This document shows positions 4,280-40,110 of a stretch of 64,000 bases of DNA, piece after piece (the first letter of the stretch is position 1; each line of letters opens with the position of its first letter). A model generated the notes under the pieces. That model did not search any database and had not been told where the DNA came from. It saw only the letters and a list, made by a program, of their open reading frames with translations. The stretch is from a bacterium (GTDB lineage Bacteria; Patescibacteriota; Minisyncoccia; UBA6257; JAGOQP01), in contig JAKAHY010000003.1 in NCBI GenBank assembly GCA_021814695.1, forward strand, positions 20,692 to 84,691, written 5' to 3'. The translations under genes were made by a program, and so were the position numbers.

Positions 4280-5332
4280 ATGAGTTACGGATTATTTCTC
4301 GCTACGCTGATAGTTGTTCTTGGGGCCGCATTTGTAGCGGCGTACTTTTTGTTCGGAAAAAAGAACAAGGGAGAGGAAAAGACCCAGGATTCCGCCTTTC
4401 TTATGCTTCAAAATCAACTGAACGAAATAACGCGGGTTATGGACAGCAAATTGGGGGAATCACAGAAGGCCACAGTCAGCCAATTCCAGGAAAGTGCCAA
4501 AATAATCCGGGACGTGACCGAAAAATTAACCAAACTGGACGAGACCAACAAACAAGTTATAAATTTTGCCGACCAACTCAAGAATTTGCAGGATATTTTG
4601 AAAAATCCGAAACAGCGGGGAATTTTGGGAGAGTATTATTTGGAAACGGTTTTAAAAAATGTTTTTGCGCCCGGGCAATATCAGATGCAGTATGAGTTCA
4701 AGGATGGAGTGATTGTGGATGCCGTGGTATTTGTAAAGGATAAGATAGTTCCGATTGACTCAAAATTTAGCTTGGAAAATTACAACAGAATTTTGGAAAG
4801 CCGCACCGACGACGAGCGGGAAAGATATGAATCGGCATTTATCAGCGATTTGAAAACAAGAATAGACGAGACTTCCAAATACGTAAAACCCGAAGAGGGT
4901 ACGATGGAGTTTGCTTTCATGTTTATACCTTCCGAGGCCGTCTATTATGATTTGCTGATAAATAAAGTAGGAGCGCTTAAGGCCAATACGAGGGATCTAA
5001 TCGAATATGCCGCTCAAAAGAAAGTTATGGTTGTTTCGCCAACGACATTTCTGGCTTATTTGCAGACGGTTCTCCAGGGCCTTAAAGCAATGCAGATAGA
5101 AGAATCGGCAAAGGAAATCAGAAAAAGAGTTGAGGATTTAGGCAAACATCTGACGGCGTTTGATTCGTATATGGGAAAACTCGCCGGCCATCTGAGCACT
5201 ACCGTAAACACTTTCAATACTGCCCACAAAGAGCTTGGAAAAATAGATAAAGACGTTCTCAAGATAACCGGAGATTCGGGCGGAATAGAAATTAAGCAGA
5301 TTGAAAAGCCGACACTGTTTGACGAAGAATAA
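4280..5332 (+). CDS. rmuC: DNA recombination protein RmuC (short paralog, 350 aa)
   Basis: N-terminal TM helix, coiled-coil region, and the RmuC core FMFIPSEAVYYDLL...VMVVSPTTFLAYLQTV. Confidence 0.8.
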   Translation: MSYGLFLATLIVVLGAAFVAAYFLFGKKNKGEEKTQDSAFLMLQNQLNEITRVMDSKLGESQKATVSQFQESAKIIRDVTEKLTKLDETNKQVINFADQLKNLQDILKNPKQRGILGEYYLETVLKNVFAPGQYQMQYEFKDGVIVDAVVFVKDKIVPIDSKFSLENYNRILESRTDDERERYESAFISDLKTRIDETSKYVKPEEGTMEFAFMFIPSEAVYYDLLINKVGALKANTRDLIEYAAQKKVMVVSPTTFLAYLQTVLQGLKAMQIEESAKEIRKRVEDLGKHLTAFDSYMGKLAGHLSTTVNTFNTAHKELGKIDKDVLKITGDSGGIEIKQIEKPTLFDEE

Positions 5333-20594: not shown

Positions 20595-20713
20595 GCGGTG
20601 GGGAAAATGGGGCTATGGCCTCATTTTTTATATCGGCAGCAGTAACAAAATAAAATAAACGATAAAAGCATTTGACAAACGAATAAAATAATGATATAAA
20701 AAACCTACTGGAG

Positions 20714-24313: not shown

Positions 24314-24704
24314 TTCCGGCCTCCTTTTGAAGTTCTAAACTGTTTAAAGTATAGCATAAAATTAAGATTTGTCAATAAGGTGTGATTAATTACTATTAAC
24401 TGTTTACTATTAACTGATTACTTGTTATCATTCAATTACAACTTAATAGAAGTTATCAAGAGTGGCGGGGAGGGAATTGGCCCCATGATCCGCCCAGCAA
24501 CTTGTCTTAGGTCTCGACGCTTAGGATAAAGTGCTAAATCCAATCCCCGAAGGCGTACTCGTCCTGAGCTCGCCGAAGGAGAGAGATAAGGTAGGTCGAT
24601 TTTTAATGCCTTTAAACTCTTTCCTTCTCGGGAGAGAGTTTTTCTTTGCCTCGTCGAAGCTTTAGCGAAGGCGGGTATTTATTATCCTTTCGGGCAATGG
24701 CTGT

Positions 24705-25216: not shown

Positions 25217-26182
25217 ATGCTTAACGAAAAAATAAGAACCTGCGAATACGTCTCCCCAAAACATCCAGATAAAATCTGTGACCAAATTGCCGATGCTATT
25301 CTGTCCGCTTATCTGAAAAAAGACAAAAAAGCGCGGGTGGCGGTGGAAGTTATGGGCGGGCACGGAGTGATAAATATATCGGGAGAAATAACCAGTAAAG
25401 CGAAAGGCATAAAAATACGAGATATAGTAGAGAAAGTGATATATGAGGGAACCGATATAGATAGAGATAGATTGAGATACGGTGGAGATAATATAAAAAA
25501 TAGAGATAAATTAAAACACAATAGATACAAAATCAATATAAACATTACTCATCAAAGCCCGTTTATTGCGCATGGAGTGGATACCGGCGGAGCGGGAGAT
25601 CAGGGAGTTATGGTCGGCTATGCCTGCAACGAGACCAAATCGCTGATGCCTCTGGAATACGAACTGGCCAAAAATTTGTGCCTGAATATTTACAAAAAAT
25701 ATCCTTATGACGGAAAAACTCAGGTAACTATAGACGGCAAAAAAGTTACGGCAGTTGTCGCCAGTTTTCAAAACACCAAAACTCCGGAATTGGAAAAATT
25801 GGTCAGGCGGCTCATAAAATCGGAAAAATATTTTATCAATCCTGCGGGGGAATGGCCGGTCGGAGGATTTGACGCCGACAGTGGGCTTTCGGGAAGAAAA
25901 ATTGTAGTTGATGCTTACGGACCAAACGTTCCGGTCGGAGGCGGAAGTTTTGCCGGCAAAGACCTGACTAAAGTAGACCGAAGCGGAGCGATGATGGCCC
26001 GAAAAATTGCCGTTGAGCTTCTAAAAAAGCACAAAGCCAAAGAGGTGCTGGTGAAACTGGCTTATGTAATTGGCGTACAACAGCCGGTAATGGCAGTGGC
26101 TTTAGCTGATGGAAAGTTGATTGAAGTAAAAGGCAGGGATTTGAGTACGAAGGGGATAGTGGAAACTTTGAGTTTTATCTGA
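25217..26182 (+). CDS. metK: S-adenosylmethionine synthetase, unusually short (321 aa), with a low-complexity insert encoded by GATA-rich DNA
   Basis: HPDKICDQIADA, GAGDQGVMVGYA, and GGGSFAGKDLTKVDRSGAMMARKIA are MetK motifs. Confidence 0.82.
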   Translation: MLNEKIRTCEYVSPKHPDKICDQIADAILSAYLKKDKKARVAVEVMGGHGVINISGEITSKAKGIKIRDIVEKVIYEGTDIDRDRLRYGGDNIKNRDKLKHNRYKININITHQSPFIAHGVDTGGAGDQGVMVGYACNETKSLMPLEYELAKNLCLNIYKKYPYDGKTQVTIDGKKVTAVVASFQNTKTPELEKLVRRLIKSEKYFINPAGEWPVGGFDADSGLSGRKIVVDAYGPNVPVGGGSFAGKDLTKVDRSGAMMARKIAVELLKKHKAKEVLVKLAYVIGVQQPVMAVALADGKLIEVKGRDLSTKGIVETLSFI

Positions 26183-26221: not shown

Positions 26222-29200
26222 ATGCCCCAAAAGATCTCAGATTATATAACCGAGGTATCAGATAAATATAAAACTGGCCGTGCCGGAGAGCATGCTTATA
26301 GGCCCACTTTTGAAAAGCTCATTAAGTCGATAGATCCAAAACTTTCGATCATTAACGATCCGAAACGTACAGAACACGGAGCGCCTGATTTTATATTTGT
26401 AAGGGGAGACTTGATAGCGGGCTATGTTGAGACAAAAGATATAGATGAGGATCTTGATAAGACTGAAAAATCAGAACAGATAGAAAGATATTTAGGTTAT
26501 TCAAATCTAATTCTCACTAATTATCTCGAATTTCGTTTTTTTAGAAACGGAGAACATTATGGCGAGCATATTATTATAGGGAAGATAATTGACGGAGTCG
26601 TTAAAATTCAAGAAGATCAGATCAGTTCTTTGGAAGATGTTATTTTTGATTTTTTATCTGCTAAGCCAGAAGCTATAAAAAGTGGAATTCGTCTGGCAAA
26701 AATTATGGGAGGTAAGGCGCGCCGTATAAGAGATAGCGTAAAACAATTTCTGACTAAAGAATCGGAAGATAATCAAGAACTCTCGCGCGTTTACGAAACA
26801 ATAAAAAAACTTCTGGTTCACGATTTAACTTCCGAATCATTTGCGGATATGTACGCTCAGACTCTTGTTTATGGGCTTTTTGTGGCTCGTTATTATGACG
26901 AATCTCCGGATAATTTTACGCGTCAAGAAGCGCGTGATCTTATACCGGCATCAAATCCATTTCTGCGTCATTTCTTTGACCATATTGCTGGTCCGGATTT
27001 TGATAAACGATTAGCTTATATAGTAAATGAACTTTGTGAGGTTTTCTCGGTCGCGGATGTTCAAGTTCTCATGAGTCAGTATTTTAAGCAAGAGGATTTG
27101 TGGGGGAAGATACATAAAGGCCCTGATCCGGTTATCCATTTTTATGAGGATTTTTTAAAAGAATATGATTCTGAATTGCGTAAAAAAATGGGAGCATTTT
27201 ATACTCCATTACCAGTTGTAGATTTTATTGTCCGGTCAGTTGATTATCTCCTCAAAAAAGAGTTTAACTTATCCGGGGGCCTTGCTGATGCTACTAAGAC
27301 AGGGTTAGTGCACAAAGTTCAAATTCTTGATCCAGCCGTAGGGACGGGAACATTTATTAGTGAAATTATTCGTACTATCTATCAAAGTTTTTCTGGGCAA
27401 GAAGGACGTTGGCCGACTTATGTTTATCATGATCTTTTGCCTCGTTTACATGGCTTTGAATTAATGATGGCGCCTTACACCATTGCCCACCTTAAATTTA
27501 GTATGATGTTAAAGGAGACGGGTTTTAAACACTTTAACAATAGTAGGCTTGGTATCTATCTGACAAATTCTCTAGAGAATGGAGACGCTCAAGATAGTTT
27601 ATTTACAGGATTTGGTTTTGCCGAGAGTATTGCGGAGGAATCCAAAGAGGCGTCAAAAATCAAGAATGAAAAACCAATCATGGTTGTTGTTGGTAACCCG
27701 CCATATAGCATTAGCTCCTCGAATAAGGGTGAGTGGATTCTAAATCTTATTAAAGACTACAAAAAAGACTTGGGCGAAAGAAAAATTAATCTAGATGATG
27801 ACTATATAAAATTTATTCGTTTTGCAGAACATTTTATAGAAAAAAATGGAAGTGGTATTGTAGCTATGATAACCAATAATTCATTTATTGATGGAATTAC
27901 TCATCGTCAAATGAGGAAGCATTTATTGGAAACATTCGACAATGTTTATATTCTTAATTTGCACGGCAATTCTAAGAAAAAAGAAAAGTGTCCAGACGGT
28001 AGTAAAGATGAGAATGTTTTTGATATTCAACAAGGCGTATCTATTTCAATTTTTGTAAGAAAAGAAGGCAAAAAACAAGAATTAGGAAAAGTATTCCACT
28101 CTGAATTATACGGCAGACGTCAAGATAAGTTTGAGAAACTTAATTCTTTTGATTTAGAAAACATAAAATGGCAAAGACTTAATACCATAGAGCCTTATTA
28201 TTTCTTTATCCCAAAAGATTTTAGTTTGAGTGATTCTTATGATAACTTTTTCTCTATAACAGATCTGTTCAAAATTTATTCAGCAGGGATAAAAACTAAA
28301 GTTGATAACATATCAATAGACTTTGAAAGAGAATCACTCGGGAAAAGAGTTGAAGACATACTTACAAATAAATATTCATTGCAAGAAGTCATTAAAAAAT
28401 TTAGCTTGAATCCAAAAACTACCTGGGAATACAACAATGTTCTGAGGGCGAGTTTTAACGATAAAGTTTTGTCTTTCTATGATTATAGGCCGTTTGATAG
28501 AAGATTTATCTACTATGATAAAAATTTTCTTTCCAGAAGTAGATCGCAAGTAATGGATAATTTTTTTAATAAAGATAATATAGGCTTAGAAACTTCACGT
28601 ATGGGTGATTACATTTTTATTTCTAAAAATATTTCAGACGAGCATTTTGTTTCAGATAATTCATTTAAATTTCCACTTTATCTGTACCTAGATAATGGTC
28701 AGCAAATATCCAATCTTAAAAATGAGATCGTGGGAAAAATTACAGGAATTACTGGCAAAGCAGCTCCCATAGATATTCTTGATTATATTTATGCAGTCCT
28801 CCATTCGCCTAATTATAGAAAAAAATATGAGGAATTTTTAAAAATTGACTTCCCGCGGATACCATATCCAAAAGACAGAAAAACCTTTGAGAAATTAGTG
28901 AGTTTTGGAAAAGAGTTGAGAGAACTGCATCTTTTAGAATCTACAAAGCTTAAAAACTTTATCACGACATTTCCAGAATCAGAAAGTGATCTCGTTGAGT
29001 CAAAATATCCAAAATATAAGGATGGGAATGTTTATATAAATAGTACTCAATATTTTGGTAATGTTTCAGAAGTTATCTGGAATTTCTACATAGGAGGATA
29101 TCAACCTGCTCAAAAATGGCTTAAAGATCGCCAAGGCCGAAAACTTTCAAATGAAGACATTGAACACTATCAAAAGATGATTGTAGCTTTGATGGAGACA

Positions 29201-29242
29201 GACGGGGTTATAAAAGAAATTGATAAAATTTATGTTCAATAA
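26222..29242 (+). CDS. Type IIG restriction-modification enzyme (MmeI-like PD-(D/E)XK endonuclease fused to a gamma-class N6-adenine methyltransferase and a target-recognition region)
   Basis: N-terminal PD…ExK (APDFIF…GYVETKD), MTase motif I (ILDPAVGTGTF), motif IV (VVVGNPPYS). 1006 aa. Confidence 0.8.
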   Translation: MPQKISDYITEVSDKYKTGRAGEHAYRPTFEKLIKSIDPKLSIINDPKRTEHGAPDFIFVRGDLIAGYVETKDIDEDLDKTEKSEQIERYLGYSNLILTNYLEFRFFRNGEHYGEHIIIGKIIDGVVKIQEDQISSLEDVIFDFLSAKPEAIKSGIRLAKIMGGKARRIRDSVKQFLTKESEDNQELSRVYETIKKLLVHDLTSESFADMYAQTLVYGLFVARYYDESPDNFTRQEARDLIPASNPFLRHFFDHIAGPDFDKRLAYIVNELCEVFSVADVQVLMSQYFKQEDLWGKIHKGPDPVIHFYEDFLKEYDSELRKKMGAFYTPLPVVDFIVRSVDYLLKKEFNLSGGLADATKTGLVHKVQILDPAVGTGTFISEIIRTIYQSFSGQEGRWPTYVYHDLLPRLHGFELMMAPYTIAHLKFSMMLKETGFKHFNNSRLGIYLTNSLENGDAQDSLFTGFGFAESIAEESKEASKIKNEKPIMVVVGNPPYSISSSNKGEWILNLIKDYKKDLGERKINLDDDYIKFIRFAEHFIEKNGSGIVAMITNNSFIDGITHRQMRKHLLETFDNVYILNLHGNSKKKEKCPDGSKDENVFDIQQGVSISIFVRKEGKKQELGKVFHSELYGRRQDKFEKLNSFDLENIKWQRLNTIEPYYFFIPKDFSLSDSYDNFFSITDLFKIYSAGIKTKVDNISIDFERESLGKRVEDILTNKYSLQEVIKKFSLNPKTTWEYNNVLRASFNDKVLSFYDYRPFDRRFIYYDKNFLSRSRSQVMDNFFNKDNIGLETSRMGDYIFISKNISDEHFVSDNSFKFPLYLYLDNGQQISNLKNEIVGKITGITGKAAPIDILDYIYAVLHSPNYRKKYEEFLKIDFPRIPYPKDRKTFEKLVSFGKELRELHLLESTKLKNFITTFPESESDLVESKYPKYKDGNVYINSTQYFGNVSEVIWNFYIGGYQPAQKWLKDRQGRKLSNEDIEHYQKMIVALMETDGVIKEIDKIYVQ

Positions 29243-29294
29243 AATAAAAATAATATAAATTTTAAATAAGTTTTGATGATGGTACGATAATTTT

Positions 29295-31454
29295 ATGAAA
29301 AAAATACAATTAAAATTAGCAAATTGCTACGGAATTAAGAAATTAGAAAGAGATTTTGATTTTTCGAATAACGGTACTTATGTAATTTATGCTCCCAATG
29401 GAGTTATGAAAACTTCATTTGCGAAGACATTTAAAGACTTAAGTTTAGGATTAAATTCTAAAGATTTGATTTTTCCAGAAATAGAGACGATCCGTGAGAT
29501 TAATAAAGAGAACAATACTAATTTGTCTAAAGAGGAAGTTTTTGTTGTAGAGCCATATAATGAGGATTTTAATTCAGAAAAAATATCTACCCTTTTGGTT
29601 AATAAAGAATTGAAAGGCAGATATGATAAAATCCATTTAAAAATTGATGAAGAAAAGAGCGGGTTACTAAAAGAATTAAAAAACTTATCTGGATTTCGAG
29701 ATGATATCGAAGAAGAAATTTCTCAAGCTTTTACAAGTGAGGACGATAGATTATTTGATTCTCTAGAAAGGGTGGAAAAAGAAGTTATGGATATTTCAGA
29801 ACCTGTGTATTCTGATATTTCTTATAAAGAGATTTTCAATGAAAAGGTTCTAAATTTTCTGATGACTAAGGATTTCAAAGAAAAAATTGAGCAATATATT
29901 AAAAAATATGACGAATTAATTGAAAGTTCAAAATATTTTAAAAAAGGTATATTTAATCATAATAATGCATCAGTTATAGCCAAGAGTTTAGTAGATAATG
30001 GTTTCTTTAAAGCACAACATTCCATTTCTTTAAATACAAGAGAAAGTAAAAATGAAATTTACACCAAAGAAGAACTTGAAAAAGTCATTGATGAAGAAAA
30101 AAACGCTATATTGAATAACCCTGATTTGGTGAAAGTTTTTGAAGAGTTGGACAGCAAATTAAAAGCTAATAAAGAATTGCGTGATTTCAGAGATTATTTG
30201 TTAAATAATCCAAAAATTTTACCAGAACTGAAAAATCTTGATAGTTTTCGACAAAAATTATGGGTATCCTATTTTAAGAGTCAAAAAGATTTATACGAGA
30301 GTTTCTTAAAGGAATACCATTCTGGAAAAAGTGAATTGGACAAAATAATAGAACAAGCTAAAACAGAAGCAACGCACTGGATGGATGTGATAGACATCTT
30401 TAATGAAAGGTTTTCAGTTCCGTTTAAGCTTAGTATAAAAAATCAGGGTGATGTTATTTTAAAACGAGATGTTCCTAGTATCGCTTTTATATTTAAAGAT
30501 TCAAATGGCGAAGTTCCTGTAGAAAAATTAAATTTACTCCAAGTATTAAGTAGCGGAGAGAAACGTGCTCTGTATATCTTAAACATAATTTTTGAAGTTC
30601 AAGCAAGAAAAGAAGAAAATCAGGAAACCCTATTTATTATTGATGATATAGCAGATTCTTTTGACTATAAAAATAAATACGCGATTGTTGAATATTTGAA
30701 AGATATTTCGGAAGAAACAAATTTTTATCAAATAATTTTAACTCATAACTTCGATTTTTTTAGAACCGTTCAGAGCAGGTTTGTTCCTTATGATAATTGT
30801 TTAATGGTTGAAAAAACAACTGAAGAATTAAAAATAGTAAAAGCAGATTATATAAAAAATCCATTCAAATACTGGATGAATCATTTAGATGATGATAAAA
30901 AATTAATAGCATCAATTCCGTTTGTAAGAAATCTTATTGAATACACAAAAGACACAAACGATGATGATTTTTTGAAATTAACATCATTATTACACGTTAA
31001 ATCAAATTCCGATTCTATTTTTAAAAGCGATTTACAAAATATTTATAAAAGTATATTTCCTAACTTATCACTAACCTTAATAGGTAAAGATGAAAAGGTT
31101 ATTAATTTAATTTTTAATTTAGCAGATACCTGTTTAACTGCGACCGTAGGCATAAATCTAGAAAATAAGATTCTTCTTTCTATTGCTATTAGATTGGTAG
31201 CGGAAAAATTTATTTTAAGTAAGATAACTGATAAAAGTGAGATTGTCGGAAAACAAACAAGGAAACTTTTTGAAAGATTTAGAAATGAATTTAATAAAGA
31301 TAATTTTGAACAAGAAAATATTAAAATACTAGAGCAAGTTAATCTTATGACTCCAGAAAATATACACTTTAATTCATTTATGTATGAGCCTATTTTAGAT
31401 ATGTCGGATGATCATTTGAAAAACTTATATAACGAAGTGAAAAAATTAAAATAA
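29295..31454 (+). CDS. SMC/OLD-like ABC ATPase (719 aa) with a degenerate Walker A and a ~390-aa helical insert between Walker A and the signature motif
   Basis: The N-terminus follows the OLD/AAA_21 pattern (MKKIQLKLANCYGIKKLE…YAPNGVMKTSFAKT). Signature LSSGEKRALYIL, Walker B/D-loop LFIIDDIADSFD, H-loop ILTHN. Confidence 0.65.
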   Translation: MKKIQLKLANCYGIKKLERDFDFSNNGTYVIYAPNGVMKTSFAKTFKDLSLGLNSKDLIFPEIETIREINKENNTNLSKEEVFVVEPYNEDFNSEKISTLLVNKELKGRYDKIHLKIDEEKSGLLKELKNLSGFRDDIEEEISQAFTSEDDRLFDSLERVEKEVMDISEPVYSDISYKEIFNEKVLNFLMTKDFKEKIEQYIKKYDELIESSKYFKKGIFNHNNASVIAKSLVDNGFFKAQHSISLNTRESKNEIYTKEELEKVIDEEKNAILNNPDLVKVFEELDSKLKANKELRDFRDYLLNNPKILPELKNLDSFRQKLWVSYFKSQKDLYESFLKEYHSGKSELDKIIEQAKTEATHWMDVIDIFNERFSVPFKLSIKNQGDVILKRDVPSIAFIFKDSNGEVPVEKLNLLQVLSSGEKRALYILNIIFEVQARKEENQETLFIIDDIADSFDYKNKYAIVEYLKDISEETNFYQIILTHNFDFFRTVQSRFVPYDNCLMVEKTTEELKIVKADYIKNPFKYWMNHLDDDKKLIASIPFVRNLIEYTKDTNDDDFLKLTSLLHVKSNSDSIFKSDLQNIYKSIFPNLSLTLIGKDEKVINLIFNLADTCLTATVGINLENKILLSIAIRLVAEKFILSKITDKSEIVGKQTRKLFERFRNEFNKDNFEQENIKILEQVNLMTPENIHFNSFMYEPILDMSDDHLKNLYNEVKKLK

Positions 31455-31470
31455 ATAATTAAAAGATTTT

Positions 31471-32880
31471 ATGACCATAATGATTTTACTAATAATAAAT
31501 ACTTTTGGAATCGCTCTTTTGACATTTCTGTTTTTTAAGAATAAACAATCTGATAATGCCGGCCAAATAACAAAAGCTGTTGAGATTTTATTTGATAGAA
31601 TGGATAAGGCTTTTAAGGAAGAAATGTCTCTAAATAGAAAAGAGTCGGCAGACTCAGAAAAAAGATTACGCGAAGAAATTTCTAGCTCATTTAAGGGATT
31701 TGGAGATTCGCTTGATAAAAGAATGTCCGAACTTGCTAGTACTCAAAATAAGAATTTTGAAGGATTTTCTATAAAACTTACAGAATTAATTGATAAGAAT
31801 GATACAAAAATAGAAAAAGTCAGAGAAACAGTTGAAAGAAAGCTTGAAAATATACAAAAAGACAACGGCGAAAAATTAGAAATGATGAGGCAGACAGTAG
31901 ACGAGAAGCTCCAATCTACCTTAGAGAAGAGACTGGGAGAATCATTCAGGCAAGTAAGCGACAAACTGGATTCTGTCCATGTCGGGCTTGGAGAAATGAG
32001 AAATCTGGCGTCTGACGTTGGTGGTCTAAAAAAAGTTTTAACAAATGTAAAAACACGCGGTATCTGGGGTGAGGCACAACTGGGTGCTTTACTGGACCAG
32101 GTATTATCTCCGGAACAGTATGCAAGTAACGTTGCAGTTAAGCGTGATGGCAGAGAAAGAGTAGAATATGCTATCAAATTACCAGGCACTAAAGAAGACG
32201 GAAGTGATCCCGTGTGGTTGCCTATAGATTCAAAATTTCCTCAAGAAGATTATGATCGTCTAATTAGCGCATACGAACAAGCAGATGCCAATGCAATTGA
32301 TGTAGCGTCTAAACAACTGGAGCTTAGGATTCGCAATGAAGCCAAAAGTATCAACGAAAAATATATTGATCCACCCAATACAACAGATTTTGCCATATTA
32401 TTTTTACCATATGAAAGTTTATATGCAGAGGTTATTAGGCGCCCCGGTCTCTGCGAAACAATTCAAAGAAGCTACAGGGTTACAATAACGTGTCCGTCAA
32501 CATTGGGTGCTTTATTAACCAGTCTTCAAATGGGATTTAAAACTCTTGCTATACAAAAGAGATCAAGTGAAGTGTGGGAAGTGCTCGGAGCAGTAAAAAC
32601 GCAATTTGGTAAATTTTCTAACTTGCTCGAAAAAACTCAAAGACAATTGAAAACCGTAGCTGGTACAATTGAAGAAGCTACTAAAAAAACCAAGACAATT
32701 GAGGGTAAACTAAGAAAAGTACAACAATTACCAGAATCTTTATCAATTAAGGTACTAAAAGGAGTGGAAGAGTTGGAAAATAGCCAGGAGGATGCAGAAG
32801 GAATAGAAAAGACGTCAATTTCTGAGACGCAAGAAGATTTTTCAGATAAAGAGATTAGATCAGAAGACCTACCGTTTTAG
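31471..32880 (+). CDS. rmuC: DNA recombination protein RmuC, second full-length paralog (469 aa)
   Basis: TM helix, coiled coil, RmuC core DFAILFLPYESLYAEVIRRPGL…RVTITCPSTLGALLTSLQMGF. Confidence 0.85.
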   Translation: MTIMILLIINTFGIALLTFLFFKNKQSDNAGQITKAVEILFDRMDKAFKEEMSLNRKESADSEKRLREEISSSFKGFGDSLDKRMSELASTQNKNFEGFSIKLTELIDKNDTKIEKVRETVERKLENIQKDNGEKLEMMRQTVDEKLQSTLEKRLGESFRQVSDKLDSVHVGLGEMRNLASDVGGLKKVLTNVKTRGIWGEAQLGALLDQVLSPEQYASNVAVKRDGRERVEYAIKLPGTKEDGSDPVWLPIDSKFPQEDYDRLISAYEQADANAIDVASKQLELRIRNEAKSINEKYIDPPNTTDFAILFLPYESLYAEVIRRPGLCETIQRSYRVTITCPSTLGALLTSLQMGFKTLAIQKRSSEVWEVLGAVKTQFGKFSNLLEKTQRQLKTVAGTIEEATKKTKTIEGKLRKVQQLPESLSIKVLKGVEELENSQEDAEGIEKTSISETQEDFSDKEIRSEDLPF

Positions 32881-35800
32881 GTATCATTCTTCAATAAATC
32901 CTCCTCAAAACTTTTGATTCCGTTGAAGCCCATTTCTGCGTATTTTGATATGTCCGGAAAGTCGAGATTTATTATTTTCTTATAAACAATGCCTATTAAG
33001 GCCTTTAGGCGCTCAACTTCTTGCGGATCTATGTCCAGTGTTAGCCCAACGAGTTCTTTATGAAGGGGTTCTATAAAGCTTATAACTCCTTTATTTACCG
33101 TATATTTATTTCCGAATGCTTTGGAGTTTTCTATAAGGAGTTTATAGAATATTAACTGATTACGGTTGCGCCAGGCCTTAATTTTTGCGTACTGGTCGGT
33201 TGGGGACCAGCTATCTATTGGTTTTCCGGTTTTAAAATCCTCAACTATCATTTTGTTCCCTTCGATTTTTATTTTATCTATTCTTCCTGTTATGGGCGTT
33301 CCGTCTATAATTGCCCCCTCCTTTTTGAAATCAAATTCACTCTTATCGTCAATTGAAAAAGATTTCTTCTTCTGATTATAAAAGTTTTCAATTGCTTTCT
33401 GTCCTCTTTGCAGTAGGAGATCAAAATCCTTTTGGTTGAGCCGTCCGTTTTTTAGGGATTCTTCAAACCAAATTAACACCTCTTTAGTCGGAGGTAGTTT
33501 TTTATTATTTTTTAGGTAGTTGTATGTGCGTTTGATAGTTTCATGAGCGGCCGATCCAAGAATGCCACTTGGGGTCTTTGGTTCAGGAAATAAAAGCAGA
33601 TTTTTTTCAAAGAAAGTTGCTGGTCCGCCATCAACAACATTTAAGAAATTCTGTAAATGAGTAACGTTGAGTTTATAGTCGTCCAAAATTGGTTTTAAAA
33701 GCGCTTTTTCTTCGGCTACAAAAGGGGGAGTGTGCAACATATTTAATTGATCAACTAGCATCTCTTCCGGAACTCGATTAATATCTTTTATTTCAATAAA
33801 TTCTGGTTCAAAAGATTTTAAAGCACCTTCCGGGGATATAAATCCAAGGCGAGAAGATTCTTTTCCCTTGTTGTCATATTTATATGATGTCAGATATAAC
33901 AATCTTTTGGCTCTGGTGATGGCAACATAAAAAAGTCGGAGTTGATCATCTATATTGTCTCCTGCTGGGCTGATGGGTAAATTCGATGGCAGGGTTATAT
34001 TATTTCTACCTCGTCCGGTTCCGGCCCAGGAATCTTCCTGGCAATTTAAAACAAATACGGCTTCAAATTCCAATCCTTTGGCTTTGTGTGCGCTCATCAA
34101 TTGGACCGCTTCGTTGGAATTAATAAAAGGACTGGTGTTATTTATGGGGAGGTTGTTTTTTGTGTGGATGTCAAAAAATTCAATCATCTCTCCAATATTT
34201 ACTCTTTTACCACGTCTATATTCTCTTAGGGATTCAATAAATGATTTTAATGAAGATAGAAAATTTAAATAATCTGCTCTGTGTTTGGTAAATTTGTCCT
34301 TGTTAAAATAATAAGATCTAAATGGACTAAACATATCATTGCTACCCGCAGTTTCTTCCTCGGTTTTTTCATCTGAAAGGATTTGCTGGGGTCCACCAAT
34401 GAGCTCCTGGAGAACTTCTTCTGCCGTTGCGTAAGTTGCTAGTCCTCCCAAGTTAATGAAAAATTCCGCTATGTCACTTAGCTGTCCTCCTAATTCTTTC
34501 ATAACCATAAGCCACGGCTTGTTTTCTTTTATAGCCTTTATAGAAAGCTCCCAAATCATTGATCGTTTTATATTCCAGAACGGATAGTTTAATATCTCCG
34601 GTAAAAAGTTATCGGCATCGTCCGATTTTTTCATTATAGAGTCAACAAATTTGGCCATCGTGATAAGTTCCAAAATGTGCGGTTCCTGCAAAACATTTTG
34701 CTGGCGTTCGTAAGCAATTGGAATTTTAGCCATGTGGAAATAAGGAGCTAGAGATTCAAGGTCTTTATGTTCGCGAGCGATAACGGCAATTTCTTTGGGG
34801 GATATGCCTTGTTCAATCAATTTTTTTATTTCGGTTGTTATCCAATGATATTCTATTTCTTTGGAAGCAAATTCTTTTGAATGGATTTTTCCATCTTTTA
34901 TATTTTTATTACTGGCGATCAGCTCTTTTTTTAATTCTGGAAAGATATTTTCAAGACGATTAACACCTTTTTTAATTATAAGTTTTGCTGCGTCTAATAT
35001 GTCTTGAGTTGATCGATAATTTTCTTTAAGAACTATTAGCTCTGGTTTGCGGTATGTGTTTTGAAAACCGCTGACGTTGGTAATTTCTGCCCCCTGAAAT
35101 TTGAAAATTGCCTGGTCATCGTCTCCGACAACCATTATATTGGGTCTGCCTTCGTTGACAGGGTTATCAGTTAGAAGCTTCAATAACCTCATTTGGGCAT
35201 CATTGGTGTCTTGAAATTCATCCACAAGAATATATTGGTAGCGTTCCTGTAAGTCCAGTTTTACGTTTAAATTGTTTTCGAGCACGGAGATTGCGTCCAG
35301 GATCATATCGTCAAAATCATAATATTCGTTTTCTCTCAACTTCTTCATATATTTTTCGTATATGTCGGCTAACGCCTCCATCCTTTCGATGTTTAAAAGA
35401 TCGGTGATATGCCTGAATCCATCCTCGCCTTTTTCTGTCCATTCATTTTTCCATTCTGTTACTGGGGATGTTGCATTCAAATCCTCGGCGTTTTTGACGG
35501 CTTGGGCGAGTGAGTACGCTAGTGATTGAGCAAAAGGTCTAAAGAAGCCCGGTAATTTTTTAGATTTAAAAGCGCCGATCTCCTTGGCGGCTGAAATTGC
35601 GGCAGGATATAATTTTTTTGAGATCCTGTCATTAAAAACAGATTTGATTATTGGGTCTGCATGTTCTATTTCTTTTTTATTTTCGGCTAATATAGTTTTG
35701 AATTCATCCGGAGTAAGCCCGGCTTTTTTAAGATATTCGATCGCCTTTTTTGTTTTATATAAGTAAGTAAATTGACCATTGAACTCTGATCGCAGGGGAT

Positions 35801-36203
35801 TATCATATGGAAGTTCGGTAAATATTTTTTCTAATATTTCTGTCTGTGTTATCTGGTCAGCAGGAAGAAGAGTGGCGCCATTATAAAAATATTCCGGATA
35901 ATAATTTATTATTTCAACTCCAAAACTATGAAAAGTATGGATAGAAACTCTGTATGCGTCATGGCCGATAAGACCAGCTAATCGGTTGCGCATATTGAAT
36001 GCGGCGGCGTCGGTAAATGTTAAACACAATATATTTCCTGGGGAGGCGTCAGTATTTTTTAAAATATTAGCCACACGCAAGCTCAGAAGCTCGGTTTTTC
36101 CGGATCCCGGCCCGGCTATAACCATCACGGGGCCATCTATGGTATCAACGGCCTGTTTTTGTTGTTTATTTAAATTTTTAATCCTATCTTCAAATGTGCT
36201 CAT
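32877..36203 (-). CDS. UvrD/PcrA-like superfamily-1 helicase fused to a C-terminal RecB-family PD-(D/E)XK nuclease domain (1108 aa)
   Basis: Helicase motifs: AGPGSGKT, DEFQDTN, VGDDDQAIFKFQGA, NYRST. Nuclease motif: GRIDKIKIEGNKMIVEDFKTGK. Confidence 0.85.
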   Translation of the reverse strand: MSTFEDRIKNLNKQQKQAVDTIDGPVMVIAGPGSGKTELLSLRVANILKNTDASPGNILCLTFTDAAAFNMRNRLAGLIGHDAYRVSIHTFHSFGVEIINYYPEYFYNGATLLPADQITQTEILEKIFTELPYDNPLRSEFNGQFTYLYKTKKAIEYLKKAGLTPDEFKTILAENKKEIEHADPIIKSVFNDRISKKLYPAAISAAKEIGAFKSKKLPGFFRPFAQSLAYSLAQAVKNAEDLNATSPVTEWKNEWTEKGEDGFRHITDLLNIERMEALADIYEKYMKKLRENEYYDFDDMILDAISVLENNLNVKLDLQERYQYILVDEFQDTNDAQMRLLKLLTDNPVNEGRPNIMVVGDDDQAIFKFQGAEITNVSGFQNTYRKPELIVLKENYRSTQDILDAAKLIIKKGVNRLENIFPELKKELIASNKNIKDGKIHSKEFASKEIEYHWITTEIKKLIEQGISPKEIAVIAREHKDLESLAPYFHMAKIPIAYERQQNVLQEPHILELITMAKFVDSIMKKSDDADNFLPEILNYPFWNIKRSMIWELSIKAIKENKPWLMVMKELGGQLSDIAEFFINLGGLATYATAEEVLQELIGGPQQILSDEKTEEETAGSNDMFSPFRSYYFNKDKFTKHRADYLNFLSSLKSFIESLREYRRGKRVNIGEMIEFFDIHTKNNLPINNTSPFINSNEAVQLMSAHKAKGLEFEAVFVLNCQEDSWAGTGRGRNNITLPSNLPISPAGDNIDDQLRLFYVAITRAKRLLYLTSYKYDNKGKESSRLGFISPEGALKSFEPEFIEIKDINRVPEEMLVDQLNMLHTPPFVAEEKALLKPILDDYKLNVTHLQNFLNVVDGGPATFFEKNLLLFPEPKTPSGILGSAAHETIKRTYNYLKNNKKLPPTKEVLIWFEESLKNGRLNQKDFDLLLQRGQKAIENFYNQKKKSFSIDDKSEFDFKKEGAIIDGTPITGRIDKIKIEGNKMIVEDFKTGKPIDSWSPTDQYAKIKAWRNRNQLIFYKLLIENSKAFGNKYTVNKGVISFIEPLHKELVGLTLDIDPQEVERLKALIGIVYKKIINLDFPDISKYAEMGFNGIKSFEEDLLKNDT

Positions 36204-36422
36204 AGTTAAAACAATACTTCAAATTTTAGATCACGTCTATTGTGAGTATGATATAATAATACAAATGTTTCATCTGCCACCAAATTTTGCTTGGGAATTG
36301 ATAAAGAACATGGTCTTTGTTTGGTGGTTGCTAATTAAAGCATTCTGGCCGTTTTTGGTTTTATTAGCCCTTTTCTACGTTCTTGATTATTGGATTAGTA
36401 ATAAAAAAAGAAAAAATAAAAA

Positions 36423-36896
36423 ATGAATGATATTGAATTTTCTAGAGATTTAATAAAAGGTAAAATTGCGGAAGTCGTGTTTGAGCAAATGTTTAGATCC
36501 TCAGGGAAATATACGATACTGCATTCCGGTTACGAATATACACTTCCTGAACTTGCACAGTATCAGCATATAGCGGAAGTGAAAGCCGTTATCGAAAATA
36601 TAAGAAATGCTCCTGATTTTGTTTTAATATCTCAGGATAAAAAAGAAGTGCATTTAGTAGAGGTAAAATATCGTACACATAGACGTCCAAATGAATTAAA
36701 GGAAATCGCGGAGGATGTGTTAAAAATCTGGAATCCATGTTGGCTATTTGTTGCATCTCCAGACGGTTTCTTTTTTGAACCCTGTAATACTGTTGTAAAT
36801 AATAATGGTGAGATGGGATTGCTTTATTCAAAATGGGTCAACGAAGACATTCAGCGAGAATTTCTTAAATTATTGAACGAATTTGAAAAAAAATAA
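36423..36896 (+). CDS. Small PD-(D/E)XK nuclease-fold protein (YraN/UPF0102-like)
   Basis: GKIAEVVFE … APDFVLIS…VHLVEVKYR (E / PD / EVK). Confidence 0.55.
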   Translation: MNDIEFSRDLIKGKIAEVVFEQMFRSSGKYTILHSGYEYTLPELAQYQHIAEVKAVIENIRNAPDFVLISQDKKEVHLVEVKYRTHRRPNELKEIAEDVLKIWNPCWLFVASPDGFFFEPCNTVVNNNGEMGLLYSKWVNEDIQREFLKLLNEFEKK

Positions 36897-37149
36897 ACCC
36901 ATGAGCAAGGATGAAGAGTTGATATATGAAAATTGCCCCATATGTCTTAAAACGGGATTTGATGGGCACCTGGCTTATCTGGCAATATTGCATTACCAGA
37001 TTGAAGCCGGAAAAGAAGAAGGCGTCCCGATTGACAAGGTTTTCGATAAAACTCAGGCACTCAAGCATTCTATTAATAAAGAAAATGTGCATGAAAATAT
37101 CATCATTTCTCTGAGGCGGCTTGAAAAAATTGAAAAAAATAATAAATAA
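36883..37149 (+). CDS. Hypothetical small protein (88 aa; alternative start 36901)
   Basis: ORF overlapping the preceding stop. Terminator AATCCGCCCAAGGCGGATT plus T-run. Confidence 0.4.
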   Translation: MKKNKPMSKDEELIYENCPICLKTGFDGHLAYLAILHYQIEAGKEEGVPIDKVFDKTQALKHSINKENVHENIIISLRRLEKIEKNNK

Positions 37150-37247
37150 TCCGCCCAAGGCGGATTTTGTGTAGACAAATTGACGCTATAATCTTTTTAA
37201 TGTAGCTTGAATTCAGCAACTATATAAAACCAAAGGAGGGGCGACAG

Positions 37248-37703
37248 ATGCCTAAAAAAATCCAATGCTATCTAGCCGGTTCGTTTATTCCATTTGGAGG
37301 TTGCGAAGATTGGCGCGATTATGTTGAGTCGAATTGTCTGTGCGGAAAAATCTCATTTTATGATCCCAGATCAGATACTGAGCAGGAATCTATAGCATCT
37401 TTTACGTCTCAGGATTTGAAAGGGGTAGGGTCGAGTGATGTCATCTTCTGTTTTATGGATAAGAACGCGGGTGAGGTCGGATCTGCTGCAGAATGCGGAT
37501 TTGGCCTTGCTAAAAATCGGATGGTAATTCTTTGTATTGGGGAGGACGTTGACTTCCCTCATCCGTTTATGTTGGGGCTTGCGCGTCGAGTGATTATCGG
37601 ACTTGATGCCGGAATAGAATATCTCAAAGGTCTTGCTGATTATGGAATTGAGAATGAATTTGCTGTTGCCTACGATTTTTTGAAAGATAAGAGCCAAAAA
37701 TAA
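37248..37703 (+). CDS. Nucleoside 2-deoxyribosyltransferase-like (NDT/Rcl-fold) protein
   Basis: CYLAGSFIPFGG motif and flavodoxin-like layout. Near-identical terminator TTCCGCCCAAGGCGGATT plus T-run. Confidence 0.5.
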   Translation: MPKKIQCYLAGSFIPFGGCEDWRDYVESNCLCGKISFYDPRSDTEQESIASFTSQDLKGVGSSDVIFCFMDKNAGEVGSAAECGFGLAKNRMVILCIGEDVDFPHPFMLGLARRVIIGLDAGIEYLKGLADYGIENEFAVAYDFLKDKSQK

Positions 37704-37722
37704 TTCCGCCCAAGGCGGATTT

Positions 37723-37920
37723 TTGTTGTATAATAAACTCATGAGCAATAAATATCATAGCGGGGGAGCGAGTGCGGTCTACGGCCTGGGGTTTGTCGGC
37801 GCGGCTATATATTTCATCGGCCACGCGGCAACTTTCTGGCTGGGAGTTTTAGGCTTTCTTAAAGCCCTTGTCTGGCCGGCATACGTCGTCTACTACGCCC
37901 TCCAAGTTCTGGTAAAATAA
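37723..37920 (+). CDS. Small membrane protein (65 aa)
   Basis: Two hydrophobic helices. Confidence 0.4.
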   Translation: MLYNKLMSNKYHSGGASAVYGLGFVGAAIYFIGHAATFWLGVLGFLKALVWPAYVVYYALQVLVK

Positions 37921-37970
37921 TTCCATTACAGACATTCCAATCCCGATATATCGGGATTGGAATGTCGTAA

Positions 37971-38672
37971 GTGAAGAAAAATAAAAAAATGCGAACGGAT
38001 AAAAAAATATTTACAATCGTTCTGCTGGTTTTGGGATTGGCTTGGGCCGGAATCACCAGCGCCCATCAGCCCAGGATTGAATTTAATTCCAATCCGACAA
38101 TCGACAATCCCGTTCCAATTTCCAATCCGGGAGTTTCTCAGGCATTTTACGGCGATCTTAAGGGTAGTCCCCAGTACTACGAAATCAAACTTGATAGCCC
38201 TTTAGATTTTTATTTTGGTGTTTTGGTTCCGGATGTTCCGGGAATCGGGAAAAATGTTTCGGCCGGGCTTATCATAGAAAATTCGCCAAAAAGTTCGTAT
38301 GCCGCTTTTCTGGACGCCTCCAGGTCTGACTGGAATATATTTTACGAGGAATTTGCAGGAGATAATTATTTTTTTGGACCCGATACCACAATAAATCTTC
38401 CGGCGGGAAATTATCTGATCAAGGTATTTAATCCTGACAATGTCGGAAAATATGTTTTAGTTGTCGGAAAGGAAGAAGTCTTTCCTCCAAGTGAATGGCT
38501 GAGTGCGGCAATAAAATTGCCTTTGCTAAAAACCCAGTTTTTTGAAAAACCGATATGGTCGTTATGGGAAGGAAAAATCGGAAAATATCTGGTTATTGGG
38601 TATCTGATATTTATTATTCTGGTTATTGGCGCAATTTATCTAATTGTAAAAAAATTAGTTGCAAGAAAATGA
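37971..38672 (+). CDS. Secreted hypothetical protein with a C-terminal TM anchor (233 aa)
   Basis: Signal peptide plus C-terminal hydrophobic helix. Confidence 0.5.
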   Translation: MKKNKKMRTDKKIFTIVLLVLGLAWAGITSAHQPRIEFNSNPTIDNPVPISNPGVSQAFYGDLKGSPQYYEIKLDSPLDFYFGVLVPDVPGIGKNVSAGLIIENSPKSSYAAFLDASRSDWNIFYEEFAGDNYFFGPDTTINLPAGNYLIKVFNPDNVGKYVLVVGKEEVFPPSEWLSAAIKLPLLKTQFFEKPIWSLWEGKIGKYLVIGYLIFIILVIGAIYLIVKKLVARK

Positions 38673-39807: not shown

Positions 39808-40110
39808 ATGAGAGGATTTATTAATTTTATTCGTGAACAGGGAGTTGTGGGCCTTGCGGTCGGATTTATTTTAGGCGGCGCGGTATCCAAAGTAGTCTCT
39901 GCCCTGATAACCGACATTATCAATCCGATTTTGGGATTAATTTTGGGATTGGCGGGGGATTTAAAAACAGCATCGTTTGGCATCGGTTCGGCACAGGTTA
40001 TGTATGGGGATCTTATCAGTGTGCTTATAGATTTTATCGTGATTGCGCTGGTTGTTTATTTCGGAGTCAAAGTCATAGGGCTCGACAGATTGGATAAGAA
40101 AAAGGAATAG
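39808..40110 (+). CDS. mscL: Large-conductance mechanosensitive channel MscL
   Basis: FIREQGVVGLAVGFILGGAVSKVVSALITDIINPILG matches the MscL TM1 region. 100 aa. Confidence 0.88.
   Translation: MRGFINFIREQGVVGLAVGFILGGAVSKVVSALITDIINPILGLILGLAGDLKTASFGIGSAQVMYGDLISVLIDFIVIALVVYFGVKVIGLDRLDKKKE

Follow-up and report, generated by a model that had tools for sequence, protein, structure and literature searches.

A low-GC cassette with a Type IIG restriction enzyme, a PDC-S46 family ATPase and an RmuC paralog in a genome of the Minisyncoccia

Genes and composition of the locus

This work concerns a cluster of genes for nucleic-acid-directed proteins in a 64,000-nucleotide stretch (the window) of contig JAKAHY010000003.1 from a bacterium of the Patescibacteriota (assembly GCA_021814695.1, forward-strand positions 20,692 to 84,691), and in particular a 719-aa ATPase of the PDC-S46 family encoded within the cluster. 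A first-pass annotation made from the sequence alone had described six consecutive genes between metK and mscL at window positions 26222-37703, and had proposed that the ATPase, an RmuC paralog and a helicase-nuclease among them resemble a defence system. All six predicted open reading frames (ORFs) were verified at exactly the listed coordinates. As to their setting, metK does lie upstream of the six-gene region, but two extra small ORFs of 53 and 82 aa are interspersed among the six genes, and mscL, a 100-aa gene (39808-40110), is found approximately five small genes past 37703. The gene arrangement of the window is carried by a second assembly besides GCA_027341185.1 (contig DAIENI010000001.1). 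The region is composite and is not one six-gene system. The six genes are as follows.

26222..29242, + strand: Type IIG restriction-modification (RM) fusion enzyme, first gene of the low-GC cassette (PADLOC, Pfam)
29295..31454, + strand: PDC-S46 family ATPase, 719 aa (PADLOC)
31471..32880, + strand: RmuC2, a long-form RmuC (Pfam RmuC)
32877..36203, - strand: UvrD/PcrA-type superfamily 1 (SF1) helicase with a PD-(D/E)XK (RecB/AddA-like) nuclease, 1108 aa (Pfam)
36423..36896, + strand: p157, a small predicted PD-(D/E)XK protein, 157 aa (motif)
37248..37703, + strand: nucleoside 2-deoxyribosyltransferase (NDT)-like protein (borderline Pfam Nuc_deoxyri_tr2)

The first gene encodes a Type IIG enzyme. 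Its product matched the PADLOC model REase_MTase_IIG (PDLC03610) with an E value of 1.5e-281, PADLOC IIG models cover residues 16-972 and 508-1004, and Pfam detected Type_ISP_C (6e-75), N6_Mtase (5e-13) and Eco57I (2e-11). An N-terminal region, an Eco57I/N6 methyltransferase (MTase) and a Type ISP-like C-terminal specificity domain are laid out in one polypeptide, and model matches cover all three parts by which a single-polypeptide Type IIG enzyme is recognized (the nuclease region, an N6 MTase of the gamma class and the specificity domain). The earlier label "MmeI-like RM fusion" is right as to the Type IIG enzyme and loose as to MmeI, since the MmeI_Mtase match scored 20.2 bits, under the cut-off of 27.

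The cluster coincides with the GC trough of the window. When the GC content at third codon positions (GC3) was compared with that of 57 other window genes (0.450 +/- 0.063), low values were found for the RM gene (0.272, z -2.8), the ATPase gene (0.204, z -3.9), RmuC2 (0.277, z -2.8) and p157 (0.266), whereas the helicase gene (0.350, z -1.6) and the NDT-like gene (0.362) were only mildly low. The z scores of the first three genes argue for a foreign origin of the cassette at 26222-32880, and the earlier description of the region as defence-island-like is supported for this left part, a horizontally acquired, defence-type cassette. The cassette genes are co-directional and probably co-transcribed; the intergenic gaps are 52 bp between the RM and ATPase genes and 16 bp between the ATPase gene and RmuC2, and the terminator scan found no terminator-like site in either gap. 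The promoter scan was no better than shuffled sequence (45 found, 46.4 expected), and no convincing att-like repeats, direct or inverted, were detected at the borders of the island.

Upstream of the cassette, a S-adenosylmethionine (SAM) riboswitch (Rfam RF00162, 49.2 bits; gathering score 44.4) was found at 24450-24592, and is followed on its 3' side by a terminator-like hairpin (24614-24641), a 67-aa ORF and metK (25217-26182). The gene for the Type IIG RM enzyme, itself SAM-dependent, begins 39 bp past metK with no terminator-like site between them, and the cassette might be read through in part from the SAM-controlled transcript. The metK product has only 321 aa and is a markedly shortened MetK, in which all three S-AdoMet synthetase domains match Pfam partially (for instance, 1-79 of 138 positions for the C-terminal domain); perhaps this is typical of bacteria of the candidate phyla radiation (CPR). 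A 14-nt motif, TATTAACTG(A/T)TTAC, occurs as a tandem pair (24394-24421) just upstream of the riboswitch and once more at 33150-33163, inside the helicase gene, a recurrence that may be due to chance.

The PDC-S46 family ATPase

The ATPase matched the PADLOC hidden Markov model PDC-S46 (PDLC05023) with an E value of 5e-282 and 935.8 bits, residues 1-718 of the protein aligning with positions 1-718 of the 719 of the profile. Besides this match, only a weak match to mad8 was returned for it by PADLOC. The PDC models derive from genes that lie inside BREX, DISARM or Type I RM loci ("guilt-by-embedding"), and the 145 PDCs of PADLOC have candidate status only (bioRxiv 10.1101/2024.01.29.577857). 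When 8000 candidate sequences were scored for membership, 7643 matched the family, and each scan of genomic context covered at most 80 loci of relatives. The best 120 homologs are 53-84% identical to the window protein and approximately 716-750 aa long when complete; at 50% identity, a representative library held 2041 family clusters, of which 837 reach E < 1e-30, with a uniform length of about 720 aa. The family is present in at least 424 species-level genomes, including those of CPR bacteria, Proteobacteria, Bacteroidota, Acidobacteriota, Firmicutes, Cyanobacteria and Woesearchaeota, as well as on 29 plasmids from widely differing genera and in a single phage record. In the annotation, the plasmid copies are called "hypothetical", "AAA family ATPase" or "phage infection protein".

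The possibility that the ATPase is a housekeeping SMC, RecN or RecF protein, which the first-pass annotation had named as a refutation of its proposal, was rejected: the protein fails the NCBIfam equivalog cut-offs (for RecF, 26 bits against 172), and the family hops between phyla and sits on plasmids and integrase islands. A PDB sequence search with the protein and with profiles gave marginal SMC matches only, and Pfam AAA_13, which matched 2 of 15 relatives at 7e-8, did not match the window ATPase.

In the structural model, the ATPase is predicted to consist of an ABC head of the SMC/Rad50 class, split by a helical insert of approximately 270 aa, and a C-terminal HEPN-fold domain. The motifs and the domain, all on the + strand, are located as follows.

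29388..29417: variant Walker A, YAPNGVMKTS (translation)
30546-30560: ABC signature, LSSGE (translation)
30630-30665: Walker B/D-loop, LFIIDDIADSFD (translation)
30738-30749: H-loop, LTHN (translation)
30846..31451: predicted C-terminal all-alpha HEPN-fold domain, residues 518-719 (fold only)

The Walker A motif had been called degenerate, and it does depart from the consensus: Lys39 and Thr40 are retained, and both consensus glycines are replaced. However, N35, G36, M38, K39 and S41 are invariant in 70 homologs and T40 is present in 69 of them, so that the motif is a conserved family variant and not a product of decay. LSxGE, DDxADSFD and LTHN are conserved as strongly as Walker A (S419, G421, E422, D450, D451, S455, F456, D457 and H484 are invariant in the same homologs). 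By structure, the nearest relatives of the head comprise, among others, the defence ATPase PtuA and the ATPases of the retrons Ec83 and Eco7. As had been noted from the sequence, the protein has neither a zinc hook nor a TOPRIM domain: it contains no CxxC, with Cys only at positions 11, 502 and 613, and neither Pfam nor PADLOC detected TOPRIM in it, the C-terminal domain being predicted as all-alpha.

The HEPN assignment of the tail comes from the fold only. Pfam matched no HEPN family when the C-terminal domain was searched alone, and no HEPN, PrrC or RloC sequence model matched the protein, although the PrrC/RloC content of the PADLOC library is not established. In the tail, R545-N546-x3-Y550 (30927-30944), H567, R633-x3-E637 (31191-31205) and T686-P-E-N-I-H691...D702 (31350-31400) are invariant, and such extreme conservation of its polar residues suggests an active site.

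Within the helical insert, residues 221-243 (29955-30023) appear as a small beta-containing subdomain with the motifs GxFNHxNA ... NGFFxAxH, in which H222, N224, G236-F238 and H242 are invariant. In addition to the HEPN-fold tail, this subdomain might provide the protein with another functional site.

In the annotated contexts, the ATPase gene directly follows an RM module in the window and in several related loci (numbered with L, or P for one further place), and these modules differ from place to place:

L001: N6_N4 MTase and MvaI/BcnI
L004-6 and L007: C-protein, Dam-type MTase and a 365-aa gene
P0094 place: N6_N4 MTase
L175: DpnII and N6_N4 MTase
L033: PLD-SNF2 helicase and Eco57I/TaqI_C MTase

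When the two upstream genes were examined in 74 loci with Pfam, the domains found were ResIII (7), DEAD (5), N6_N4_Mtase, Eco57I and N6_Mtase (4 each), DNA_methylase, Methylase_S and RE_endonuc (3 each), and HSDR_N and Vsr (2 each), while the two downstream genes in these loci included one XhoI and one GmrSD. A scan for MTase motifs within 4 kb of the ATPase gene found a same-strand ORF upstream in 10 of 52 loci and downstream in 2 of 59 (Fisher's P = 0.012). When every gene up to 5 kb to either side of the ATPase was clustered across 81 loci, the neighbours counted were integrase (8), HTH (7), RmuC (5, the window included), C5 MTase (5), N6_N4 MTase (5), DUF5131 (4), resolvase (4), and Vsr, Type III Res, DUF2130 and Type I S (3 each). 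The commonest neighbour class of the family is an RM module that lies upstream in the same orientation. The ATPase stands alone in approximately 90% of loci, and the plasmid copies stand alone amid toxin-antitoxin, HNH, insertion sequence and restriction genes. With its variable partners and solitary plasmid copies, PDC-S46 therefore has the behaviour of a mobile module of one gene, located by preference behind restriction systems.

RmuC2, the helicase-nuclease and the small downstream genes

RmuC2 is an RmuC paralog as annotated (Pfam RmuC, 8.8e-74, residues 134-422), and the separate first rmuC at 4280-5332 of the window was also confirmed. RmuC2 has a transmembrane (TM) helix at residues 3-22 (MTIMILLIINTFGIALLTFLFF), a coiled coil and an RmuC nuclease domain of the PD-(D/E)XK type. 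A tight ATPase-RmuC2 pair, with a gap of -4 to +16 bp, is found in the window, in the metagenomic loci L004-6 and in a Moranbacteria locus (L007). These loci share only the pair, as the upstream RM systems and the flanks differ, and a synteny comparison of the window with the closest ATPase or RmuC loci found nothing in common beyond the module itself. The ATPase is also followed by an RmuC in Elusimicrobia (L033, 49-bp gap), and in Chlorobiaceae (L073) an RmuC lies 1.7 kb upstream on the opposite strand. In Bdellovibrionales (L038, 184-6201), an MZB protein (MrfA Zn-binding domain, which we take to be DUF1998/DrmB-like), an RmuC, the PDC-S46 ATPase and a Ser/Thr protein kinase are found together. 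RmuC is the immediate neighbour of the ATPase in 3 of 80 loci, which corresponds to P of approximately 6e-4 to 2e-5 if one RmuC in 1000-3000 genes is assumed as background; RmuC is thus a recurrent and statistically enriched neighbour of the family, which supports this part of the earlier interpretation. In five further loci, the ATPase is flanked by DUF2130, a coiled-coil protein with a GxD...ExK signature. Either RmuC or DUF2130 flanks the ATPase in approximately 10% of loci, and the two were treated as separate families, since their homology by hhalign was not significant.

The fourth gene is a fusion of a UvrD helicase and a PD-(D/E)XK nuclease on the opposite strand, as had been described: Pfam detected UvrD-helicase (7e-63), UvrD_C (4e-37) and PDDEXK_1 (2.6e-8), and the gene is convergent with RmuC2, with a 4-bp overlap. 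Its named homologs are all from the CPR (Woese-, Colwell-, Wolfe- and Azambacteria, Paceibacterota), are about 1100 aa long, and fall smoothly in identity from 67% to 48%; on the evidence of these homologs, the organism is a member of the CPR/Patescibacteria. In L179 and L180 the helicase lies between the Obg GTPase and the Asp/Asn-tRNA synthetase, and in L169 it adjoins an Mrr-type gene and ExoVII-S. The first-pass annotation had suggested that co-localisation of the ATPase, RmuC2 and the helicase-nuclease in other genomes be checked. A homolog of the helicase was found with the ATPase in none of the 80 genome loci (one match of 9% coverage only) and in none of seven further contexts, so that for this gene the proposed trio did not survive; there is also no second copy of the helicase in the window. 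The helicase matched the GajB models of PADLOC, but the PcrA, Rep and UvrD models scored equally, all of them far below their cut-offs. The GajB matches therefore reflect generic UvrD similarity, and by its sequence the protein is assignable to the UvrD superfamily only. Against the NCBIfam equivalog cut-offs it scored 273 versus 911 for PcrA, 246 versus 951 for Rep, 126 versus 861 for AddA and 120 versus 696 for RecB. We judge the helicase-nuclease to be a vertically inherited core gene of the CPR that lies outside the ATPase system.

Two loci that contain parts of a similar kind were observed. In L176 (1-8151), a giant helicase of SF1 (AAA_11/AAA_12) that carries an MTES_1575 restriction-endonuclease-like domain at its C terminus is followed by DUF2130 and then by the PDC-S46 ATPase, while in L178 (1-9321) the same kind of giant helicase/MTES_1575 protein is followed by RmuC2 and the UvrD-nuclease. 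Like parts (a helicase-nuclease, a coiled-coil nuclease, and an ATPase or a helicase) are thus combined from differing families.

The small protein p157 contains PDFVL (36612-36626) and VEVKY (36657-36671), a PD...EVK signature. It had no significant family match and only sub-threshold matches to PD-(D/E)XK families (TnsA_N, VRR_NUC); the earlier reading of it as a PD-(D/E)XK mini-nuclease is plausible, but its likeness to YraN was not borne out. In L088 (65-3091) and L089 (4492-7872), a trio of a DUF2779 protein, a p157 homolog (40-42% identity) and an RmuC is found, in which the p157 homolog lies directly upstream of the RmuC and the RmuCs are the closest relatives of RmuC2 (71-75% identity). 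In the window, the helicase gene separates p157 from RmuC2. The trio, which may form a separate nuclease module, adjoins a serine recombinase and a Rep protein in L088 and an N6_N4 MTase and BsaWI pair in L089, and the RmuC2 subclade and p157 therefore occupy variable, nuclease-rich neighbourhoods.

The last of the six genes had been described as an NDT/Rcl-fold protein; a match to Pfam Nuc_deoxyri_tr2 was indeed obtained, at 30.0 bits and thus exactly at the gathering score of 30, so that the assignment is borderline. No homolog of it was found in any related locus, and it shows no sign of linkage to the cassette. A 28-nt element that contains the GC-rich hairpin TCCGCCCAAGGCGGA is present in two copies, one (37141-37168) after the small ORF that follows p157 and the other (37696-37723) after the NDT-like gene, and the hairpin scores as a terminator on both strands. 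Further downstream, a perfect 36-bp palindrome without a spacer (GACATTCCAATCCCGATA / TATCGGGATTGGAATGTC, 37931-37966) lies directly 5' of a 233-aa ORF that starts at 37971, and could be an operator or another protein-binding site.

Known systems and competing explanations

The locus had been thought to match no known system exactly, which did not hold for the ATPase, as it is a full-length member of a catalogued family and has a predicted ABC-HEPN architecture of the PrrC/RloC type and not that of Gabija, OLD or Lamassu. Like the catalogued PDC-S46 candidates, which are embedded in or beside BREX, DISARM or RM loci, the window protein is adjacent to an RM system (the Type IIG gene lies 52 bp upstream), and the family mostly has no conserved partner. 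The single-gene definition of PDC-S46 excludes RmuC, whereas the window ATPase is followed by one. What is already known, therefore, is the family and the class of RM-linked ABC-HEPN architecture; what is new here are the predicted fold, the conserved non-canonical motifs, the tendency of the family to lie behind RM modules, and the RmuC and DUF2130 partners that recur beside it.

PrrC is embedded in the Type Ic EcoprrI RM locus, and in an analysis of the HEPN superfamily, ABC-HEPN proteins (PrrC, RloC and related proteins) were "often found in R-M operon". PrrC is a protein of approximately 400 aa without a long helical insert, encoded inside Type I hsd operons. Both PrrC and RloC have a catalytic Rx4-6H motif, in which the His is essential and, in PrrC, the Arg is needed, and the superfamily includes non-catalytic members as well. 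RloC is a single-gene system under the control of a zinc hook within the Rad50-like part of the protein, and some of its members are found in mobile R-M neighbourhoods. The window ATPase resembles PrrC in its N-terminal ABC ATPase part, its predicted C-terminal HEPN-fold domain, its RM linkage and the second-line logic proposed for it, and resembles RloC as a single-gene, long ABC ATPase with a helical/coiled-coil insert and a C-terminal domain of the same predicted fold. It differs from both in the absence of Rx4-6H, from RloC in the absence of a zinc-hook CxxC, and from PrrC in that sequence-level similarity does not go beyond the weak AAA_13 matches of 2 of 15 relatives, and in that PDC-S46 follows Type II, IIG, III and other modules. 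The protein therefore appears from its modelled fold to be built like a PrrC/RloC-type protein, but because the Rx4-6H motif is absent and no PrrC, RloC or HEPN sequence model matched, we do not file it in those families.

For RmuC2, the closest comparison is with Shield, by which RmuC-domain proteins are proven defence nucleases, with approximately 70 homologs in DISARM-like operons; Shield itself has been reported from Pseudomonas alone, with the partners ShdB-E (a peptidase and unknowns), none of which is an ABC ATPase (PMC10270631). RmuC2 is similar in that it carries an RmuC domain and adjoins restriction-type genes. In contrast, RmuC2 clusters with ordinary long-form RmuCs and has no ShdB-like peptidase next to it; PADLOC returned no Shield match for the window proteins, although the Shield model content of the library is not established. 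ShdA reportedly has an N-terminal TM helix and a coiled coil before its RmuC domain, as RmuC2 does. The Bdellovibrionales locus L038 resembles the DISARM-associated RmuC loci, which are on record from Pseudomonas only and recurrently contain an "AAA family ATPase/hypothetical" cluster (Table S7; PMC10270631). A Pseudomonas plasmid copy of PDC-S46 has no RmuC nearby.

Other systems were rejected. Gabija consists of GajA, an OLD-type ATPase-TOPRIM protein, and the UvrD helicase GajB, and both Gabija and class 2 OLD systems recall the window in that an ABC ATPase is found near a UvrD-family helicase that scores on GajB models. The window ATPase, however, has no TOPRIM, and the helicase (~1100 aa, with a RecB-type nuclease) belongs to the CPR core, lies on the opposite strand and is unlinked to the ATPase elsewhere (0/80 loci). 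Lamassu consists of the SMC protein LmuB, the effector LmuA and LmuC. The ATPase head weakly resembles LmuB (Foldseek, 3e-4) and the nuclease partners are variable in both, but the helical insert is short beside the arms of SMC proteins, the ATPase itself carries the effector-like domain as a fusion, and none of the eight proteins searched with PADLOC matched an LmuA, LmuB or LmuC model at E <= 0.01. Finally, the helicase resembles AddA and RecB in its UvrD N and C domains and its C-terminal PD-(D/E)XK nuclease, but it is far under the equivalog cut-offs of AddA and PcrA, belongs to a CPR-specific lineage and has no AddB partner that was seen.

Our favoured explanation, held with modest confidence, is that the RM enzyme, the PDC-S46 ATPase as a PrrC-like accessory and RmuC form a horizontally acquired cassette, to which the helicase is merely adjacent. 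The Type IIG enzyme would restrict unmodified DNA. By analogy with PrrC, RloC and other defence ABC ATPases, the head and insert of the PDC-S46 protein would act as a nucleotide-dependent sensor of failed or inhibited restriction, or of aberrant or accumulating foreign DNA, and a second-line output would be delivered by the conserved C-terminal domain, directed against RNA or nucleic acid. In a minority of loci, an alternative or added output might come from the adjacent coiled-coil PD-(D/E)XK nuclease, which is the membrane-anchored RmuC here and DUF2130 elsewhere.

Several observations weigh against this reading. The name PDC-S46 is absent from the full texts searched, and in another study in which eight other candidate systems (six of them PDC-S) were assayed, four protected and some PDC-S failed. 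The variants in Walker A and in Walker B (DD) make ATP hydrolysis uncertain, and the canonical Rx4-6H motif is present at any position in at most 2 of the 70 homologs, in which RNxxxY and TPENIH are invariant instead. The gene calls in the related loci were made as longest ORFs and are crude; when MTase-motif ORFs on any strand are counted, the upstream excess (11/52 against 5/59, P = 0.065) is not significant, and the motif scan puts RM adjacency at only about 20% of genome loci, which may reflect the general clustering of defence islands. Furthermore, no partner family exceeds approximately 10% of the 81 loci in the unbiased clustering.

The remaining points on the same side concern RmuC2, and it is on them that the first alternative rests: that an RM and PDC-S46 cassette was inserted upstream of resident CPR repair genes (RmuC2, the helicase and p157) and that the ATPase works without RmuC. 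When the 80 closest relatives of RmuC2 were sampled from metagenomes (48-79% identity), the ATPase was next to none of the 57 that had enough upstream sequence, and their neighbours were mostly housekeeping genes such as those for ABC transporters and GGDEF/PAS/HD proteins. In a neighbour-joining tree, the ATPase-linked RmuCs are polyphyletic: the window RmuC2 groups with L087 and the p157-linked L088/L089, L004 and L007 are sister to L090, and the RmuCs of L033, L073 and L038 branch separately. Therefore, the suggestion that the second RmuC is dedicated to the island did not hold. The window and L004 share 84% identity in the ATPase and 67% in RmuC2, which suggests different histories, and from this inequality and the polyphyly it follows that the ATPase-RmuC pairing arose several times; such repeated pairing may reflect selection for adjacency or an insertion preference. 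L178 carries an RmuC2-type gene (64.5% identity) on the same strand as a helicase homolog (64.8%) and 8 bp upstream of it. This equal divergence fits RmuC2 as a resident, perhaps long-standing neighbour of the helicase in this lineage and favours a cassette that landed next to resident genes, as do the p157-RmuC pairs of L088 and L089 and the ATPase that stands alone on plasmids and in most genome loci. However, RmuC2 and p157 have a cassette-like, foreign GC3, the tight ATPase-RmuC junction recurs in L004-6 and L007 and again in Elusimicrobia and Bdellovibrionales, the enrichment of RmuC is far over the assumed chance level, and DUF2130, a second coiled-coil nuclease family, takes the same position elsewhere. 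We regard the chance-neighbour explanation as doubtful, though not remote. A functional link between the ATPase and RmuC is likewise tentative, about half as probable as its absence; RmuC2 is possibly an optional effector partner, or a resident gene beside which the cassette landed.

A more far-reaching version of the favoured reading holds that PDC-S46 is a very widespread RM-guarding ATPase whose divergent HEPN-fold tail, with RNxxxY and TPENIH where Rx4-6H would be expected, is a new sensor or catalytic module, and which has repeatedly and independently recruited membrane-anchored or coiled-coil PD-(D/E)XK nucleases (RmuC, DUF2130) as switchable effectors that degrade DNA, so that the window would contain a three-layer unit of IIG enzyme, ATPase sensor and RmuC executioner; we consider this unlikely. 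Less likely again is that PDC-S46 serves mobile elements or RM cassettes in maintenance, addiction or DNA transactions (for instance SMC/Rad50-like DNA handling or post-segregational stabilisation), with a non-catalytic binding domain as its HEPN-like tail. The frequency of the family on plasmids and near integrases, resolvases and transposases, the missing Rx4-6H together with the existence of non-catalytic HEPN proteins, and the non-canonical Walker A and B all agree with such a role, but the neighbours are mainly restriction and defence genes and not those of replication or partition, the family came to notice within BREX, DISARM or Type I RM systems, the relatives of the head include PtuA and the retron ATPases, and the extreme conservation of the polar tail residues suggests an active site. 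That the ATPase, RmuC2 and the helicase-nuclease are one novel immunity system of the Gabija/OLD or Lamassu kind, to which the RM enzyme, p157 and the NDT-like protein would also belong, is very improbable and is largely refuted by co-occurrence: the genes are contiguous, the helicase matches GajB models, RmuC2 adjoins the same helicase family in a second CPR contig (L178) and L176 holds a functionally similar trio, but the helicase is absent from all 80 genome loci and seven further contexts of the ATPase, is CPR-restricted with a vertical pattern and Obg/Asp-tRNA synthetase synteny, lies on the opposite strand with a mildly low GC3 and matches GajB only generically, no TOPRIM and no LmuA/LmuC-type partner was returned, and the ATPase is mostly solitary.

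If the PDC-S46 ATPase is a second line that guards restriction, as our favoured reading proposes, the PrrC paradigm would extend well beyond enterobacterial Type I systems. One of the PADLOC candidates would thereby gain a function, in a large family that spans Type II, IIG, III and DISARM-like modules in bacteria, archaea and the genome-reduced CPR. The recurrent RmuC and DUF2130 partners provide a testable hypothesis for the control of RmuC-type nucleases in defence. For the annotation of CPR genomes, the UvrD-nuclease of their core should not be taken for a GajB-like defence gene.

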